This document shows, one piece after another, positions 29,797-37,946 of a stretch of 64,000 nucleotides of DNA. Below the pieces are notes generated by a model. It searched no databases and had not been told where the DNA came from. It saw nothing but the letters and a program-made list of their open reading frames with translations. Position numbers and translations under genes: made by a program. This DNA is from an uncultured Cytophagales bacterium (GTDB taxonomy: Bacteria; Bacteroidota; Bacteroidia; Cytophagales; JAAEPT01). The DNA lies in the NCBI GenBank assembly GCA_963815495.1, contig CAWFGW010000001.1:65873-129872 (forward strand). The letters run 5' to 3'. Each line of letters starts with the position of its first letter. Position 1 is the first letter of the stretch.

Positions 29797-30627
29797 ATGA
29801 AAACAAGAATATTCCTATTACTTATTTCTTCTTTGTTGGTGCTGAGTTGTGAAAAAGATAAGAAAGAAGATGAAACTATTCAAAACGACAAAGTTCAGGA
29901 GACTAAAGATAATCCAATTACTTATGGCGCATGGTCTTCTAGTAATGATTTAACTCGAATTAATATAGACCAAAATGGAGTAGAGTTTTGCAATATAAAA
30001 GTTCATGAAATTTATGGAGCAAGTACAACTTCAAAGATATATAAAGGTTGGATAGTAGATGGTGAGGAACAGGCAGCCGAAGGAGCAATTTTTAGATATT
30101 TTGTTCAAGGTGGAGATTTGTACATTAGAGACCCAGATGACAATGTGGCGGGTCCTTATTTTAAAAGAGAGGGAGGCTTTTCATGTTCTTATGAAGTTGA
30201 TAAACCTGAGGCTGATACTAGTATGTATGGTAATTGGACTTTGTATGAAAAAATTGATAAAGGTCAAGAGAAGTATGGAGGTTATCAAGTATGTAATGAA
30301 GTTACTCAAACATGTTCAACAAAATATTCTTATTTAGATATTTATGAGGAGACTACGATAAATCTTTCGATTGGAAAAGGTGGTGCGAGTGGTTGCGGAC
30401 ATTTTTTTAGTAATGCATTTGGTGGGTCTGGTTATGACGAAAAAGTCGATTTACGTTTATCTTGTTATGATTTAGCTTTATCTTATACGTGTACTGGAAA
30501 TGTTTATTTTTCACTTAATCCAGATGGAAACCTTGAAATTGAAATTATAGATGAAAGTTATAGAGTTGAAGGAAACTACATTCTGAAAAAGTCAGCTTCA
30601 TCATTTAACTGCCCCGATCTCTACTAA
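29797..30627 (+). CDS. hypothetical lipoprotein
   Basis: 276 aa with the lipobox LLVLSC. No family recognised. Confidence 0.45.
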   Translation: MKTRIFLLLISSLLVLSCEKDKKEDETIQNDKVQETKDNPITYGAWSSSNDLTRINIDQNGVEFCNIKVHEIYGASTTSKIYKGWIVDGEEQAAEGAIFRYFVQGGDLYIRDPDDNVAGPYFKREGGFSCSYEVDKPEADTSMYGNWTLYEKIDKGQEKYGGYQVCNEVTQTCSTKYSYLDIYEETTINLSIGKGGASGCGHFFSNAFGGSGYDEKVDLRLSCYDLALSYTCTGNVYFSLNPDGNLEIEIIDESYRVEGNYILKKSASSFNCPDLY

Positions 30628-30666
30628 AAAATAACTTAGGTTTTTACAATTCTTCCAAACTCTTTA

Positions 30667-30674
30667 TATATTTG
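30667..30674 (+). promoter_or_regulatory. candidate -7 box TATATTTG for the trp operon
   Basis: Perfect TAnnTTTG ending 4 nt before the leader ATG. No clear -33 TTTG was seen. Confidence 0.35.
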
Positions 30675-30678
30675 CCCT

Positions 30679-30732
30679 ATGCATTTACAAACTACAGTTG
30701 CAAAAAATTGGTGGTGGCTTGATAAAAATTAA
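30679..30732 (+). CDS. trpL: trp operon leader peptide MHLQTTVAKNWWWLDKN
   Basis: 17 codons with TGG TGG TGG at 30709-30717. Located between a -7-like box and a terminator directly upstream of trpE. Confidence 0.7.
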   Translation: MHLQTTVAKNWWWLDKN

Positions 30733-30784
30733 TTATCAGGCGAAGAGTGCTATATAAAAAAGAATTTGAATCATTAAATTATAT

Positions 30785-30818
30785 AAGCTTACTGCACGCA
30801 GTAAGCTTTTTTTATTTT
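30785..30818 (+). terminator. trp attenuator (intrinsic terminator)
   Basis: aagcttactg-cacg-cagtaagctt (10-bp stem) followed by tttttatttt. trpE ATG at 30824. Confidence 0.75.
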
Positions 30819-30823
30819 AAGGT

Positions 30824-32230
30824 ATGAGTAAAATTAACTTCAACACCAATTTCAAAAAGATCCTGGGCGACACGTATACCCCAGTAGGTATTTATTTGCG
30901 GTTTCGAGACAAATACCCGAATAGTATTATCATGGAAAGTTCTGATTATCATGGTAATGAACACAGCTATTCGTACATCTGCTTCGACCCAATTTCTAAG
31001 TTTGTGGTGGAGAAAAACACCATTTATCAGCAGTTACCTGATGGCGAGTTGACTACCAAAACAATTGCTAAACGGCAGGATGTGACAGAAGGATTACAAG
31101 CCTATGCAACTAGTTTTTCTTATGATAAACCGAAGGTGCCTTACATCACCCATGGCTTGTTTGGCTATTCGTCATACAATGCAGTAAGGTACTTTGAAGA
31201 CATAGAAATAGATGAATTTGAATCGGACGAAAGAGCCATCCCTGACTTATATTACCAGATTTACCGTTATGTGTTAGTGTATAGTCATCAGCAAGATGAA
31301 ATATATATCTACGAACACCTGAGAGAGGGTGAGGAAAGCAGGATGGATGTCGTGTTAGAAACGTTGAATCGAAAAGATTTTTCAGCATACGACTTCACTT
31401 CTGGTGATGATGAAACATCAAACTTCACTGATGATGAATTTTTAAAAATTCTTCAGAAAGGTATGGATCACTGCTATCGGGGTGATGTTTTTCAGATGGT
31501 GCTTTCAAGACGCTTTCAGCAAAGTTTCAAGGGCGATGAGTTTCAGGTGTATCGTGCTTTGCGTCATATTAACCCTTCGCCTTATTTGTTTTTTTTTGAT
31601 TTTGGAGGGTTTAAAATCTTTGGTTCTTCCCCAGAGGCTCAAATTGTGATTGATGACGGGAAAGCTACGATTTTCCCCATTGCAGGTACATTTAAACGCA
31701 CAGGCAACGATGAGGAAGATCGAGCGTTGGCAAAAAAATTATTTGACGATCCCAAAGAAAACTCAGAACACGTAATGCTAGTGGACTTAGCTCGAAATGA
31801 TTTGAGCCGTCATGGTTCAGAAGTAACAGTAGAAACCTTTAAAGAGATTCAGTTTTACTCCCACGTCATACACTTAGTGTCAAAGGTTACAGGTAAAATG
31901 GATGATGTCACCCAGTCAATCCAGCTGGCTGCAGACACATTTCCCGCAGGAACGTTGTCTGGAGCACCCAAATACATGGCAATGAAACTTATTAACCAAT
32001 ATGAAAACAACTGTCGTGGTTATTATGGTGGTGCTATAGGTTATATGGGTTTTGAGGGTGAGTTTAATCATGCCATCATGATTCGGACAATTTTGAGCAA
32101 AAGTAACAACCTCTATTATCAAGCAGGCGCTGGGGTAGTGGCTAAATCAACTATTGAAAGCGAGTTACAGGAAGTACATAACAAGTTATTGGCACCAAAA
32201 ACAGCTATTGAGTTGGCGAATAAGATATAA
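30824..32230 (+). CDS. trpE: anthranilate synthase component I
   Basis: 468 aa with chorismate-binding motifs (INPSPYLFF, GTLSGAPK, GYYGGAIGY). Confidence 0.93.
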   Translation: MSKINFNTNFKKILGDTYTPVGIYLRFRDKYPNSIIMESSDYHGNEHSYSYICFDPISKFVVEKNTIYQQLPDGELTTKTIAKRQDVTEGLQAYATSFSYDKPKVPYITHGLFGYSSYNAVRYFEDIEIDEFESDERAIPDLYYQIYRYVLVYSHQQDEIYIYEHLREGEESRMDVVLETLNRKDFSAYDFTSGDDETSNFTDDEFLKILQKGMDHCYRGDVFQMVLSRRFQQSFKGDEFQVYRALRHINPSPYLFFFDFGGFKIFGSSPEAQIVIDDGKATIFPIAGTFKRTGNDEEDRALAKKLFDDPKENSEHVMLVDLARNDLSRHGSEVTVETFKEIQFYSHVIHLVSKVTGKMDDVTQSIQLAADTFPAGTLSGAPKYMAMKLINQYENNCRGYYGGAIGYMGFEGEFNHAIMIRTILSKSNNLYYQAGAGVVAKSTIESELQEVHNKLLAPKTAIELANKI

Positions 32231-32346
32231 AGACGGAAAGCGGAAAAATGTAGGAATGGTTAACCTAATAATGTCAATCGTAAGTTCCGTTAAGCGTCTA
32301 GCGTTGCACGTTCTTCCGTTTCCCCGTTAACTGTAAAAAGAAAACA

Positions 32347-32919
32347 ATGAAAATACTAGTCTTAGATAATTACGATTCGTTTACCTACAACTTGGTACAC
32401 ATCATTCGCGAAGCGGGCTATGGTGCTGATCTGGATGTAATTCGTAACGATAAAATCACAGTAGAAGAAGTCGCCAAGTACGACAAAATTCTTCTTTCTC
32501 CTGGCCCAGGAATTCCAGTAGAAGCAGGTATTATGATGGACTTAATAAAAACATATGCACCAACAAAGAGTATTTTAGGTGTATGTTTAGGTCATCAAGG
32601 CATTTGTGAGGCATTTGGAGCTACGTTGACCAACATGAAACATGTCTTACATGGTATTGGAATGCAAACAACCGTCCTTGACCAAGCAGATTATTTGTTT
32701 CAAGGGATTAACAATGAATTTACCACAGGTCGATACCACAGTTGGGTTGCTGAAAAGTCAACCATTGCTGATCCCATGGAAATCACTGCTCTCAGCGAAG
32801 ACGACTACGTGATGGCTGCGAAACATAAAACTTATGATGTCCGCGGGGTACAGTTTCACCCTGAATCCGTATTGACACCTGGTGGAAAACAGATTGTGTT
32901 GAATTGGCTTGATAACTAG
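32347..32919 (+). CDS. trpG: anthranilate synthase component II (glutamine amidotransferase)
   Basis: 190 aa. GATase1 catalytic GVCLGHQ and HPES. Confidence 0.92.
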   Translation: MKILVLDNYDSFTYNLVHIIREAGYGADLDVIRNDKITVEEVAKYDKILLSPGPGIPVEAGIMMDLIKTYAPTKSILGVCLGHQGICEAFGATLTNMKHVLHGIGMQTTVLDQADYLFQGINNEFTTGRYHSWVAEKSTIADPMEITALSEDDYVMAAKHKTYDVRGVQFHPESVLTPGGKQIVLNWLDN

Positions 32920-32921
32920 TG

Positions 32922-33000
32922 AATAGTTAATAATGAAGAATTAATAATTATTTAAAAACGTCATTGCGAGGAAGGAGGTACGACTGACGTGGCAATCTTT
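32922..33000 (+). repeat. REP/MITE-like unit, copy A (aatagttaataatgaaKaattaataatt...cgtcattgcgagg...ctgacgtggcaatct)
   Basis: Near-identical to 34125-34198 apart from a short indel and a few substitutions. Confidence 0.85.
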
Positions 33001-33026
33001 CAATCGCAAACGAACATATAATTTGA

Positions 33027-33055
33027 GATGTCATCTCGAGGTTAGAGGAATCTTT
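33027..33055 (+). repeat. degenerate short unit (gatgtcatctcgaggttagaggaatcttt)
   Basis: Shares gtcatYKcgagg...aatcttt with unit A. Confidence 0.5.
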
Positions 33056-33101
33056 AGTATATAATTCTTTACTCATCAAAAATGACATCGAAGTAAAAAT
33101 A

Positions 33102-33131
33102 AAAGATTGCCGCGCTACGCTCGCACTGACA
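33102..33131 (-). repeat. inverted short unit (aaagattgccgcgctacgctcgcactgaca)
   Basis: Its reverse complement tgtcagtgcgagcgtagcgcggcaatcttt parallels unit A. aaagattgcc is the exact complement of ggcaatcttt at 32991-33000. Confidence 0.7.
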
Positions 33132-33143
33132 AATAGAGAAAAA

Positions 33144-34133
33144 ATGAAAGAACTATTACACCACCTATTCGCCCATAACACATTATCAAGAGAACAAGCT
33201 AAATCGGTTTTGATGGAGATTGGTGAAGGCAAACATGTGCCCATGCAGATTGCTACCTTCCTGACAGTGTTCAGTATGCGTAGCATCACTGTGGAAGAGT
33301 TGCTCGGCTTTAGAGATGCGATGTTAGAAATGGTGGTGAAGGTGGATTTGAGTGAATTCACTCCGTTAGACATTGTAGGAACTGGAGGCGATGGAAAAGA
33401 TACGTTCAATATCTCTACTACCAGTGCTTTTGTGACGGCTGGTGCAGGTTACAAAATTGCAAAACACGGCAACTATGGGGTGTCTTCAAGTTGTGGATCA
33501 TCCAATGTGTTGGAATATTTGGGGGTCAAGTTTAGCAATGAAGAAGCGGTATTAAAATCACAATTGGAGAAGTCTGGCTTTTGTATGCTTCACGCTCCCC
33601 TTTTTCATCCAGCCATGAGATATGCTGCGCCCGTTCGAAAGGAAATGCAGGTACGCACCTTCTTTAATATGCTTGGACCAATGATAAACCCCTGCTACCC
33701 TAAACATCAGTTTTTGGGAGTCTATAGTTTGGAGTTGTTGCGATTATATGGCTATATGTATCAAAGGACAGATATAACTTACAACATAGTACATGCTTTA
33801 GATGTGTATGATGAAGTCTCGCTGACCTGTCCTGTAAAAATAATGTCAAACCGGGGAGAAGCCTTGTTAGAGCCAAAAGACTTTGGGTTCAAACAAATCA
33901 CTCAGAAAGAATTATGGGGAGGAGCCTCTATTGAAGAGTCTGCTAAAATTTTGGTCAATATCTTAAAAGGAGATGGCACCGAAGCGCAAACCAATGCTGT
34001 ATTAGCAAATGCTGGTTTAGCTATACAAACCATGGAACAAACGTGGTCGTTAAGTGATTGTATTGCCAAAGCGAGGGAGTCGATAGATTCAGGGGAAGCA
34101 TTCGCTTCACTGAATGTTTTAATTAATAGTTAA
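33144..34133 (+). CDS. trpD: anthranilate phosphoribosyltransferase
   Basis: 329 aa. GTGGDG and NxxGP motifs. Confidence 0.92.
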   Translation: MKELLHHLFAHNTLSREQAKSVLMEIGEGKHVPMQIATFLTVFSMRSITVEELLGFRDAMLEMVVKVDLSEFTPLDIVGTGGDGKDTFNISTTSAFVTAGAGYKIAKHGNYGVSSSCGSSNVLEYLGVKFSNEEAVLKSQLEKSGFCMLHAPLFHPAMRYAAPVRKEMQVRTFFNMLGPMINPCYPKHQFLGVYSLELLRLYGYMYQRTDITYNIVHALDVYDEVSLTCPVKIMSNRGEALLEPKDFGFKQITQKELWGGASIEESAKILVNILKGDGTEAQTNAVLANAGLAIQTMEQTWSLSDCIAKARESIDSGEAFASLNVLINS

Positions 34134-34198
34134 TAATGAATAATTAATAATTTTCCGTCATTGCGAGGAAGAAGGCACGCCTGACGTGGCAATCTCTT
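34125..34198 (+). repeat. REP/MITE-like unit, copy B (overlaps the trpD stop codon)
   Basis: See copy A. The trpD TAA (34131-34133) lies inside the repeat. Confidence 0.85.
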
Positions 34199-34223
34199 CA
34201 TCGGATAACGTTTTCAAAATATT

Positions 34224-34264
34224 AAGATTACACACGTCCTGCTAGAGCAGGACTGGTAATGACG
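34224..34264 (-). repeat. inverted partner of copy B
   Basis: Its reverse complement cgtcattaccagtcctgctctagcaggacgtgtgtaatctt parallels cgtcattgcgagg...ggcaatctctt. Contains the internal palindrome gtcctgc-taga-gcaggac (34236-34253). Confidence 0.7.
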
Positions 34265-34274
34265 TAAGACAAAA

Positions 34275-35069
34275 ATGAACATACTAGATAAGATAGTCGC
34301 AAACACACAAGGAGAAGTCGCTGCACGTAAGTCGCTAGTGACTGTTGCTGAATTGGAAAAATCACCTCTTTTCAACCGAACACCTTTGGTGGTGAAAGAC
34401 TTTATTCGCAACCCAGCTAATTCGGGTATCATTGCGGAGATAAAAAAGAAAAGTCCTTCGAAAGGTATTATCAATGATAAAATTGATGTGGTAGAAGTGG
34501 GAAAAGGCTACGAAGCTGCTGGCGCATCGTGCATTTCTTGCTTAACTGATTTTGAGTTTTTCGGTGGTAAAATGGAATATCTTACTGCCGTAAAAAAAGC
34601 AGTGAACATACCCGTACTTCGCAAAGACTTCATGATTGATGAATATCAAGTCATCGAAGCGAAAGCTATTGGGGCGGATATGATTTTGCTGATAGCTGCT
34701 TGTTTGACTCCAGTAGAGTTAGAAAACTTAGCCAAGCTGGCAAAGAGTTTAGGTCTTTCTGTATTAATGGAAGTGCATGATGAAGAAGAATTAAAACGCA
34801 GTATCAACCCGTATTTGGATTTGGTAGGCGTAAACAACCGAAACCTCAAAACCTTTGAAGTTTCAGTGGAAACATCTATCCGTTTGGCAGCATTAATCCC
34901 TGATGAATTCTTAAAAGTATCAGAGAGTGGCTTGACTGATGTTTCTGTCATTCCCAGCTTAAAAGCTGCTGGTTACGAAAGTTTCTTGATTGGCGAGACT
35001 TTTATGCGAGAACAAGATCCTGCGAAATGTTTGGCAGAGTATATATCAAAAATGAAGATAGAAGGATAA
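34275..35069 (+). CDS. trpC: indole-3-glycerol phosphate synthase
   Basis: 264 aa. IAEIKKKSPSKG, LRKDF and NNRNL motifs. Confidence 0.92.
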   Translation: MNILDKIVANTQGEVAARKSLVTVAELEKSPLFNRTPLVVKDFIRNPANSGIIAEIKKKSPSKGIINDKIDVVEVGKGYEAAGASCISCLTDFEFFGGKMEYLTAVKKAVNIPVLRKDFMIDEYQVIEAKAIGADMILLIAACLTPVELENLAKLAKSLGLSVLMEVHDEEELKRSINPYLDLVGVNNRNLKTFEVSVETSIRLAALIPDEFLKVSESGLTDVSVIPSLKAAGYESFLIGETFMREQDPAKCLAEYISKMKIEG

Positions 35070-35071
35070 AA

Positions 35072-35149
35072 GTAGAAGGTAGAAAGACTCTGGAGAACCA
35101 AGATGCAAGAGTCAAGAATTAGAAGAATAATGTAGAAGGTAGAAAGACT
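35072..35149 (+). repeat. word module: GTAGAAGGTAGAAAGACT twice (35072-35089, 35132-35149) around AGATGCAAGAGTCAAGAA (35101-35118)
   Basis: Exact 18-mer duplicated 60 nt apart. The same module sits on the sense strand 3' of lysA. Confidence 0.85.
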
Positions 35150-35157
35150 TAAAAATC

Positions 35158-35197
35158 AACTTAAAACTTATCACTTACAACTAAAAAACTCAACAAC
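35158..35197 (+). repeat. 40-nt pre-start element (copy 2), abutting the trpF TTG start
   Basis: aacttaaaacttatcacttacaactaaaaaactcaacaac-TTG. The first 14 nt are identical to the M23 copy, and the remainder differs by several substitutions and one indel. Confidence 0.8.
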
Positions 35198-35830
35198 TTG
35201 AACATAAAAATAAAAGTCTGTGGCATGCAGGATCCTGAGAACATCGAGGAGCTAGTGGCGTTACAACCTGACTACATAGGATTGATCTTCTATGAAGGGT
35301 CCAAACGGTATGCTGGAGCTACTCCTTCCATGGCTATTGAGGCGGTTATTCCAGATTCTATAGAGCCTGTAGGAGTTTTCGTGAACGAAGCGATGGAGGA
35401 AATTGAAGAAATTTCTGCCGATTATAACATCAACACCTTACAGTTGCATGGGGATGAATCACCTGAGTTTTGTGGTGAGTTAAAAAACAAAGGCTTTAAA
35501 GTGATTAAAGCTTTCGGAGTGGATGAGCAATTTGACTTTAAAAAGTTGGAACCTTACAAAAACAAAGTAGATTTCTTCCTGTTCGATACTAAGGGAAAGG
35601 AACATGGCGGAAATGGTGTAACTTTCGATTGGTCTATCTTAAAAAAATATGATAACTCAGTGCCTTTTTTCCTAAGTGGAGGTTTGAGTGCAGACAACAT
35701 TTCGGAAGTGTTAAAATTAGAAGGAATGAATATCCATGCAGTGGATGTAAATAGTAAATTTGAACTAGAACCAGGCGTGAAAGATGTTGAATTACTGAAA
35801 GAATCAGTGTTTAAAAAATTGAGAATATAG
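35198..35830 (+). CDS. trpF: phosphoribosylanthranilate isomerase
   Basis: 210 aa. MNIKIKVCGM N-terminus typical of TrpF. Apparent TTG start with no in-frame ATG upstream. Confidence 0.88.
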   Translation: MNIKIKVCGMQDPENIEELVALQPDYIGLIFYEGSKRYAGATPSMAIEAVIPDSIEPVGVFVNEAMEEIEEISADYNINTLQLHGDESPEFCGELKNKGFKVIKAFGVDEQFDFKKLEPYKNKVDFFLFDTKGKEHGGNGVTFDWSILKKYDNSVPFFLSGGLSADNISEVLKLEGMNIHAVDVNSKFELEPGVKDVELLKESVFKKLRI

Positions 35831-35904
35831 AACTAAAAGACAGCTAAACGGTGAATGATGGAACGCTGAATGTTGCCCGTCAAACCGTTAAGCGATCAGC
35901 GTAT

Positions 35905-37086
35905 ATGGAACATAAAATAAACGAAAAAGGATATTATGGACAGTATGGTGGAGCTTATATCCCTGAAATGCTGTATCCAAACGTAAAGGAATTAAAAGAT
36001 AATTACCTTAAAATCATGAACGAACCCAGCTTTAAGCAAGAGTTCAATGATTTGTTACGAGACTATGTTGGTCGTCCAACTCCCTTATACTTTGCTTCGC
36101 GGTTATCGGAAAAGTATAACACTAAAATCTATCTCAAAAGAGAGGATTTATGTCATACTGGTGCGCACAAAGTCAACAACACCTTAGGGCAAATTTTGGT
36201 GGCTAAACGTTTGGGAAAAACACGCATTATCGCTGAAACCGGAGCAGGACAACACGGTGTTGCCACTGCGACCATGTGTGCTTTAATGGGCCTACCATGC
36301 GTTATCTATATGGGAGAAGTTGACATCGAACGTCAGAAACCCAACGTAGAACGCATGAAGCTTATGGGAGCCGAAGTTCGACCAGCATCTAGCGGAAGTA
36401 AGACCTTAAAAGATGCCACCAATGAAGCGATTAGGGACTGGATCAATAACCCCGTTGATACCCACTACATCATCGGTTCGGTAGTAGGGCCTGATCCCTA
36501 TCCAGACATGGTAGCACGATTCCAGTCAGTAATTTCGGAAGAAATGAAATGGCAGCTTAAAGAAAAAACGGGTTCGGAAAACCCTGACTATGTCATTGCA
36601 TGTGTTGGCGGTGGTAGTAATGCAGCAGGTGCATTTTACCATTACCTCAACGAAGAAAGTGTGAAGTTAATCGCAGTGGAGGCTGCGGGGTTTGGTGTAG
36701 ATTCAGGTAAAACAGCCGCAACAACAGCAAAAGGAGCTTCAGGAATCATTCATGGCAGCAAAACCCTGTTGATGCAAACCGAAGATGGACAAATCATTGA
36801 ACCACACTCTATTTCTGCTGGGTTAGACTACCCTGGAATTGGTCCAATGCATGCCTATTTATTTGACTCAGGTCGGGGTATATTTTATAGCGCAACAGAT
36901 GACGAAGCTTACAATGCAGGCGTACTGTTAAGTAAAACTGAAGGCATTATCCCAGCCTTAGAAAGTGCCCATGCTATCGCAGCATTGGATTTTATTCAAT
37001 TTAAAAAAGATGATGTGGTCGTAATTAACTTATCGGGTAGAGGAGATAAGGATTTACAAACTTACATGGATCGAGGAGGGTATTAA
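35905..37086 (+). CDS. trpB: tryptophan synthase beta chain
   Basis: The ORF track begins at a GTG (35851). The ATG at 35905 gives [24 protein letters not shown] Lys motif HTGAHKVNN. Confidence 0.93.
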
Positions 37087-37172
37087 ATGCATAACGTAAT
37101 TACGCAAAACGGAAAACGATAAAATATGCGGTTCAACCGTTTTGCGTTTAATCGTCAATCGTAAAAAAAACA

Positions 37173-37946
37173 ATGAACAGACTACAACAATTATTCAACG
37201 ATAAAAAGGAAAACCTCCTCAACGTATATTTTACGGCAGGTTACCCAACACTAAACGATACCACGCGGATTTTGAGTTTGCTCGAAAAGTCAGGGGCTGA
37301 TTTGGTAGAAATAGGTATGCCTTATTCCGACCCGATGGCCGATGGTCCTGTGATACAGGAAAGCAATGGTGTGGCTTTGGCCAATGGCATGTCGATCAAA
37401 AAGCTCTTCGAACAACTGGAAGGCATTCGTGAAAAAGTCTCTTTACCGGTCCTGTTGATGGGTTATTTAAACCCCGTGATGCAATACGGAATTGAAAACT
37501 TCTTGAAAAAAGCAGCAGAAGTAGGGGTCGATGGTATCATTGTGCCTGACTTACCAATGCAGGAATATGAAGACGAATACCAAGGGTTATTTGAAAAATA
37601 TGGTTTGTCAAATGTGTTTTTGGTAACCCCACAAACCACGCCTGAACGACTTAAAAAAATCGATAGTCTAACAAATGGTTTTGTTTATATCGTTTCCACC
37701 AATAGTACTACTGGAAATGAAACTAAAAAAGAAGATACCACGACTGAATATTTTGAGCGAATTAAAGCAGCAGGGTTGAAAAATGCGAGCCTGATTGGTT
37801 TTAATATCAAAGACAATGCTTCATTTGCGAATGCATGCAAATACTGTCATGGAGCCATTATCGGTAGTGCATTTATCAAGGTGTTAGAAAAAGGTGGTGA
37901 CTTAGAGAAAAGTATTCCGGAGTTTGTGAGAGGGGTGAGGGGCTGA
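37173..37946 (+). CDS. trpA: tryptophan synthase alpha chain
   Basis: 257 aa. EIGMPYSDPMADGPVIQ motif. Confidence 0.92.
   Translation: MNRLQQLFNDKKENLLNVYFTAGYPTLNDTTRILSLLEKSGADLVEIGMPYSDPMADGPVIQESNGVALANGMSIKKLFEQLEGIREKVSLPVLLMGYLNPVMQYGIENFLKKAAEVGVDGIIVPDLPMQEYEDEYQGLFEKYGLSNVFLVTPQTTPERLKKIDSLTNGFVYIVSTNSTTGNETKKEDTTTEYFERIKAAGLKNASLIGFNIKDNASFANACKYCHGAIIGSAFIKVLEKGGDLEKSIPEFVRGVRG

Follow-up and report, generated by a model that had tools for sequence, protein, structure and literature searches.

The 64-kb window analysed here (the whole stretch of 64,000 nucleotides, from an uncultured Cytophagales bacterium) contains a tryptophan operon, and the question is whether the 158-nt gap before its first gene, trpE, holds a control element and how such an element could sense tryptophan. 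We find in this gap a short leader ORF with three Trp codons and an intrinsic terminator, which together head the operon trpEGDCFBA (30824..37946, forward strand). It is very probable that they form a ribosome-mediated transcription attenuator of this operon. Ribosome-mediated attenuation had been proposed in an earlier note made from the sequence, and the proposal is supported by conservation across the Bacteroidota and by its match to a published class (Weinberg 2010). The trp leader is thus not a new discovery, as its class was described in 2010 and is represented in Rfam as RF01692, and the attenuator opens no new kind of mechanism. For annotation, the gap should be recorded as a trp leader/attenuator with terminator that is missed by the current Rfam model.

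All genes of the operon were assigned by Pfam and are on the forward strand: trpE (30824-32230), trpG (32347-32919), trpD (33144-34133), trpC (34275-35069), trpF (35198-35830), trpB (35851-37086), and trpA (37173-37946). In the window, trpG and trpD are separated only by a 224-nt spacer (32920-33143). In three close relatives, a PF05635 gene (23S-rRNA-intervening-sequence-protein) is found between trpG and trpD (L081, 3605-4000; L082, 3598-3981; L086, 3535-3930). The gene that immediately precedes the leader, an ORF of 276 aa (29797-30627, forward strand), has no Pfam match.

Loci for comparison were collected by their TrpE proteins. The best TrpE homologues are metagenomic proteins with 94-69% identity, followed by proteins from Cytophagales and Chitinophaga with about 65%, and the homologues align over their full length. 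The scan of a genome collection yielded one uncultured Cytophagales MAG with 98% identity and 79 other Bacteroidota with at most 63%. Nine further close loci (within L081-L090) came from exact-protein look-ups. A metagenome scan for closer relatives added 80 loci, all with at most 58% identity, and found no TrpE above that value.

Leader ORF, promoter and terminator

The leader ORF (30679..30732, forward strand), read from the window sequence, codes for the peptide MHLQTTVAKNWWWLDKN and consists of 17 codons followed by TAA. Its three consecutive Trp codons, TGG TGG TGG, are at 30709..30717 (forward strand) and would be the sensing site, where a ribosome would stall when charged tRNA-Trp is scarce. 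The stop codon follows 12 nt after the last Trp codon. The earlier note had given the ATG at 30679, the end of the ORF at 30732 and the Trp codons at 30709-30717, and every one of these coordinates was confirmed. TGGTGGTGG occurs three times in the 64-kb window against 0.29 expected copies, and the two other copies are located within ORFs of 600 aa and 470 aa.

Upstream of the leader, a -7 box of the Bacteroidota sigma-A type, TATATTTG (TAnnTTTG), is found at 30667..30674 (forward strand) and is followed by four bases and then the leader ATG, exactly where the earlier note had placed it. A possible -33 element, TTTA at 30643..30646 (forward strand), can be assigned with low confidence from its position relative to the -7 box; the consensus is TTTG, and this motif is weak in Bacteroidota (PMC6847099, PMC7366714). 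The TAnnTTTG box of Flavobacterium johnsoniae has its G at -5, and the start site follows 4-5 nt on (PMC6847099). With the corresponding G at 30674, this spacing would put +1 on A30679 (forward strand), where the leader ATG begins. The leader mRNA is therefore predicted to be leaderless, with transcription starting at or within a base of its ATG. The suggestion of an essentially leaderless mRNA, already made in the earlier note, is thus supported by the F. johnsoniae spacing rule and also by the relatives, as the gap of 4-5 nt between the -7 box and the ATG is kept in all ten close relatives. By itself, TAnnTTTG-N4-ATG is not rarer than chance (one in the window, 1.96 expected), and only about 4-13% of mRNAs are leaderless in the Bacteroidota that have been studied. 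RNA sequencing runs were searched for this locus, and none was found to cover it.

The spacing between box and ATG is bimodal across the fetched loci. Bacteroidales have about 20 nt, whereas the clade of the window and some of the other Cytophagales have 4-6 nt, for which a leaderless mRNA is predicted.

The terminator hairpin, AAGCTTACTG-CACG-CAGTAAGCTT, has a perfect stem of 10 bp (30785..30808, forward strand) and was found by terminator scan and by folding, with a folding energy of -12.1 to -12.6 kcal/mol. The U-tract TTTTTTTATTTT begins at 30807 and overlaps the last stem bases; the part beyond the stem (30809..30818, forward strand) ends 5 nt short of trpE. This is the terminator which the earlier note had described at 30785-30818, 5 nt before the trpE ATG (30824), and the terminator scan reports the same hairpin. 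In the relatives, 95% of its cells are paired. The palindrome AAGCTT is present at both ends of the terminator stem (30785-30790 and 30803-30808).

A simple detector reported a terminator for 74 out of 84 leader-bearing loci in one set and for 49 out of 69 in a second. Five of the misses were inspected and all have the hairpin; they were missed because the pattern of the detector excludes their tails, which are of TTTTGATTTT type in four cases and TTTTATAATTT in L065.

Alternative pairings of the leader RNA

Directly after the Trp codons, the leader can form a first hairpin ("1:2") in which GCUUGAUAA (30717-25) pairs with UUAUCAGGC (30733-41). This hairpin (30717..30741, forward strand) has -9.8 kcal/mol and carries the stop codon in its loop. 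It covaries in the clade of the window: among the 10 relatives, both bases are exchanged in three of the nine pairs, and 84% of the cells are paired. L088 and L089 have a different, unrelated sequence at this site, and yet a hairpin is found at the same place. The 5' arm is no more than about 13 nt away from the Trp codons and would be covered by a ribosome stalled there. An outer stem between UGGU (30709-12) and GCUA (30749-52) is predicted by RNAalifold and is invariant in the seven closest sequences.

Another stem, between GCAUUU (30681-86) and GAGUGC (30745-50), appears when the single sequence is folded but is not secure, as only 68% of its cells are paired in the relatives and the partner shifts its position in L084, L086, and L087. 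It may possibly act as an extra anti-antiterminator.

A candidate antiterminator was obtained as the minimum-energy fold with the region of the stalled ribosome masked. In this fold, the putative switch strand GCGAAGAGUGCUAUAUAA (region 2; 30740..30757, forward strand) pairs with region 3 (30779..30799, forward strand), which begins 6 nt before the terminator and continues through its 5' arm and loop into the first base of the 3' arm. The predicted pairing has four segments: G30740-G30742 with C30797-C30799, A30746-U30748 with A30791-U30793, G30749/C30750 with G30787/C30788, and U30751-A30757 with U30779-A30785. As a duplex the two strands have -11.4 kcal/mol and as a hairpin -8.4 kcal/mol, which is weaker than the terminator (-12.6 kcal/mol). 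Shuffled sequences form duplexes of -7.2 +/- 2.5 kcal/mol, and 29 of 500 shuffles reach the value of the window (p ~0.06). When the complementarity test was confined to the arm, the loop and 3 nt in the window, p was 0.12. Among the 10 relatives, 85% of the cells of the antiterminator are paired, against 17-51% for slid controls; the pairing is almost without covariation, and 147 of 500 shuffles reach its paired fraction. When the alignment of 10 sequences was truncated to the stalled state, RNAalifold gave no consensus antiterminator, for which the misalignment of L088 and L089 is a partial cause. The antiterminator is the weakest link of the attenuator model in this clade, and that its pairs are exactly those given above is a modelling result which we regard as slightly more likely to need revision than to hold.

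The candidate switch strand has further partners. G30740 and C30741 are common to the first hairpin and the antiterminator, UGGU (30709-12) is an alternative partner for GCUA (30749-52), and GCAUUU (30681-86) for GAGUGC (30745-50). With these alternative pairings of 30740-57, a leader that is untranslated, or from which the ribosome has been released, could sequester the switch strand.

There is a competing proposal for the switch, by which the Trp-codon region itself would pair with the terminator (regions 1:3; 30711-30732 with 30774-30796). It includes the pairing of 30716-32 with 30774-90 that had been pointed out in the earlier note. This complementarity does exist, with -6.1 kcal/mol, a value which is reached by 12 of 500 shuffles, and no other single strand of the window is as strongly complementary to the terminator 5' arm as the one of the 1:3 pairing (-10.6 to -11.6 kcal/mol). 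As an antiterminator, however, the pairing of the earlier note is unlikely because its 5' strand would lie under the stalled ribosome and is already engaged with 30733-41 in the covarying local hairpin 30717-41. With the 5' strand in the footprint of the stalled ribosome, a 1:3 switch would let the polymerase read through under ample tryptophan, the opposite of what is required. Furthermore, two properties of the sequence produce such complementarity as a by-product. Across the phylum, UGGUGG faces arms of the pattern YYRYYR, G/U-rich against pyrimidine-rich sequence, and so the pairing of the Trp codons with the 5' arm (-10.6 kcal/mol in the window) had to be rejected as a product of composition: in 74 loci, shuffled arms pair equally well. 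The AAGCUU palindrome, in turn, gives the 5' arm spurious complementarity to any strand that contains GCUU, including the segment past the Trp codons. The pairing of 30716-32 with 30774-90 belongs to this same by-product of composition and palindrome, and we consider a 1:3 switch highly unlikely.

Returning to the attenuator with a switch strand past the Trp codons, we analysed whether the family as a whole folds as the model would demand. A total of 104 distinct leaders were folded up to the terminator loop in three states, and the free-energy gain of the 5' arm from upstream pairing was measured. The mean gain is 1.85 kcal/mol for naked RNA, 4.9 kcal/mol for a stalled ribosome whose A site is on a Trp codon, and 2.55 kcal/mol for a ribosome on the stop codon. 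The stalled state exceeds naked RNA by more than 1 kcal/mol in 90 leaders, while the reverse never occurs; it exceeds the state with the ribosome at the stop codon by more than 1 kcal/mol in 64 leaders, with the reverse in 16. The complementarity of the region past the Trp codons to the 5' arm, the loop and the first three bases of the 3' arm has a mean z of -2.6, with p<=0.05 in 65 of 103 leaders. These modelled foldings are in line with the classical logic of attenuation and support it for the family.

For the clade of the window, the same three-state folding gave gains of 3.5 (naked), 4.9 (stalled), and 6.4 kcal/mol (at the stop codon) for the alternative pairing. The thermodynamic model thus does not favour the stalled state over the ribosome at the stop codon in this clade. 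Discrimination would then have to rely on the ribosome leaving and the first hairpin folding again, and not on masking of the antiterminator by the terminating ribosome.

The stop codon (UGA) is predicted to be fully paired in 60 of 103 distinct leaders, L016 and L053 among them, its partners being bases of the terminator loop or the base that begins the 3' arm. Examples of the pairing are GUGAA with UUCAC and GUGAG with CUCAC, and in L076 the stop codon UAA is opposite the loop UUUA, a compensatory change. With the stop codon paired to the terminator loop, a terminating ribosome would sit directly on the antiterminator strand. Pairing of the switch strand with the terminator apex is present across the family, and the window has only a degenerate form of it. 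The supplement text and seed alignment of Weinberg 2010 (PMC2864571) that were consulted do not mention pairing of the stop codon with the terminator apex.

Distance between terminator and trpE

As the U-tract ends only 5 nt before trpE in the window, and 8-25 nt before it in many Cytophagales, refolding of the leader might mainly control translation of trpE by changing access to its start codon; Shine-Dalgarno sequences are not used by this phylum. Initiation in Bacteroidota does depend on unstructured, A/U-rich leaders (PMC6847099). However, a hairpin followed by a run of at least seven U is a canonical intrinsic terminator, and this hairpin ends 15 nt upstream of the ATG with an unstructured U/A run in between. 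In addition, the leader and terminator are found 45-216 nt from trpE in many relatives, so that proximity is not conserved. Control mainly at the level of trpE translation is for these reasons very improbable, and transcription attenuation is preferred.

Conservation of the leader in Bacteroidota

A survey was made for ATG-started ORFs of 8-30 codons that contain WW or WxW and are located at most 420 nt upstream of trpE. Such a Trp-rich mini-ORF was found in 75 of 80 genome loci, in 69 of 73 usable metagenome loci, and in all ten close relatives. A conserved mini-ORF of this kind before trpE, which the earlier note had named as something to look for in related genomes, is therefore widespread. 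The reverse complements of the same regions gave no such ORF (0/133), and shuffled sequences gave 11 in 665 (1.7%), none of them with WWW. This survey supports the view that classical leader-peptide attenuation is near-universal before trpE in Bacteroidota.

The UGG run (30709-17) is invariant in 10 of 10 close relatives, with leader peptides such as MHLQTTVTNNWWWLDKK, MHLQTALANNWWWLDKK, MAQTKYITLTNWWWLGNN, MLRKAHIENANWWWLGNN, and MLINNAHINRWWWHNFYC. Among the relatives, conservation is limited to the Trp run, the reading frame and the approximate length, while the remaining codons vary freely. A leader peptide that serves as a sensor should show such a pattern, whereas a functional protein should not. 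The gene upstream of the leader also varies (a DGC-domain gene, a gene for a CvfB-like S1 protein, or a divergent lysA), while leader and terminator remain with trpE, and thus the hairpin is not simply the terminator of the upstream gene.

That the mini-ORF is coincidental or untranslated, with the hairpin as terminator or insulator of the ORF at 29797-30627 and the UGG run as an RNA- or protein-binding motif, is a notion to which the chance-level frequency of the box-ATG motif lends some room, but we consider it practically negligible since ATG, in-frame Trp codons and stop codon are kept in more than 150 loci while the other codons vary, the controls of the survey are nearly empty, the element stays with trpE where the upstream gene differs, and a promoter box separates that gene from the leader.

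Proposed mechanism

From these parts we infer the following response to tryptophan for the attenuator of the window. From the TAnnTTTG promoter, transcription would start on the leader ATG or one base away at most, and a ribosome would translate the 17-codon leader. With ample charged tRNA-Trp, the ribosome would pass the three UGG codons, terminate at the UAA (30730), and leave. The hairpin 30717-25/30733-41 could then form, and further pairings would hold 30745-52. This would allow the 10-bp terminator with its U-tract to form, and most transcripts would stop 5 nt short of trpE. If charged tRNA-Trp runs low, the ribosome would stall with UGG in the A site and cover about 30694-30728, so that the first hairpin is blocked. 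The freed strand 30740-57 would be able to pair with 30779-99 and so to engage the 5' arm and loop of the terminator together with the first 3'-arm base. With the antiterminator paired, the terminator could not nucleate, and RNA polymerase would read into trpE.

The clade of the window may represent a variant design that combines a truly leaderless leader mRNA with a stop codon moved out of the switch strand, an idea we put forward with reserve and hold to be rather doubtful. If it applies, Trp sensing would depend on ribosomes that start at a 5'-terminal AUG, and discrimination would rest on release and hairpin refolding instead of a terminating ribosome that masks the antiterminator. Two design points could be tested in this clade: whether the leader mRNA starts at its AUG, and where the stop codon stands with respect to the switch strand. 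A search of the literature library found no experimental test of a Bacteroidota trp leader.

Comparison with known systems

The Bacteroid-trp leader motif occurs upstream of trpE or trpB in Bacteroidetes and has at least two conserved UGG codons (Weinberg 2010, PMC2864571). The supplement reads this motif, RF01692 in Rfam, as ribosome-mediated attenuation. The RF01692 seed alignment marks a "loosely conserved hairpin" past the Trp codons, and around it an outer stem in which the Trp region pairs with downstream sequence. The element of the window shares with this family the phylum, the site before trpE, a short ORF with at least two UGG codons, the hairpin directly past the Trp codons, the terminator at its end, and the proposed mechanism, and its 5' arm GCUUACUG resembles the GGCUUGUC and GGCUUACU of the family. 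It differs in having the stop codon in the loop of the first hairpin, whereas in 60 of 103 leaders of the family it is part of the switch strand, and in its terminator loop, which is CACG in the window and UUCA, ACUC, or UUCG in the family. The spacer from the stop codon to the terminator also differs: it measures 54-59 nt in the clade of the window and reaches 64 nt in L088/L089, while the other loci have 24-49 nt; the 55 nt of the window are exceeded only by L086, L087, and L088/L089.

A further difference is that the window and its nine closest relatives are not scored by the Rfam model. In the window (30400-31000), neither RF01692 nor RF00513 gave a match even at E<=10, and RF01692 gave none at E<=10 in the nine closest relatives. 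The model has low sensitivity in general, as its gathering threshold of 49 bits was passed in only 2 of 20 clearly leader-bearing loci (L002 with 54.1 bits and L041 with 64.9 bits), and it needs to be rebuilt from more diverse sequences. By position, content and architecture, though not by model score, the element of the window is a divergent member of the RF01692 class.

Two other model matches were rejected. RF00513 (Trp_leader) matched L088 with 22.4 bits and an E-value of 2.7, which is at chance level; no other of the nine closest relatives gave a trp-leader match. A match of PyrG_leader (RF02371) in the window has 37.7 bits against a threshold of 65 and is driven by the terminator and its A/U-rich flank.

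In the enterobacterial trpL (RF00513; the Yanofsky model), the ribosome senses charged tRNA-Trp, as is proposed for the window, and the leader RNA switches between 1:2, 2:3, and 3:4 pairings. The leader of the window is similar in peptide size, in its leader ORF with Trp codons side by side roughly 10 codons after the ATG, in a 1:2 hairpin that a stalled ribosome would disrupt, and in the intrinsic terminator (3:4) before trpE; its 2:3 pairing is a candidate. It differs in having three Trp codons where trpL has two, and it is without sequence or model similarity to RF00513. It also has a promoter of the sigma-A(Bfr) type, no Shine-Dalgarno sequence and a leader mRNA that is predicted to be leaderless, no TrpR operator is apparent, and its candidate antiterminator extends into the terminator loop.

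Attenuators with leaderless small ORFs are known from Actinobacteria, e.g. the polycysteine leaderless ORFs of mycobacteria. These differ from the leader of the window in phylum, in the amino acid and in the downstream genes, and for the window the leaderless status is predicted from promoter spacing. Given that start site, the two would have in common a regulatory mini-ORF, rich in one amino acid, whose start codon is also the 5' end of the mRNA from which it is translated.
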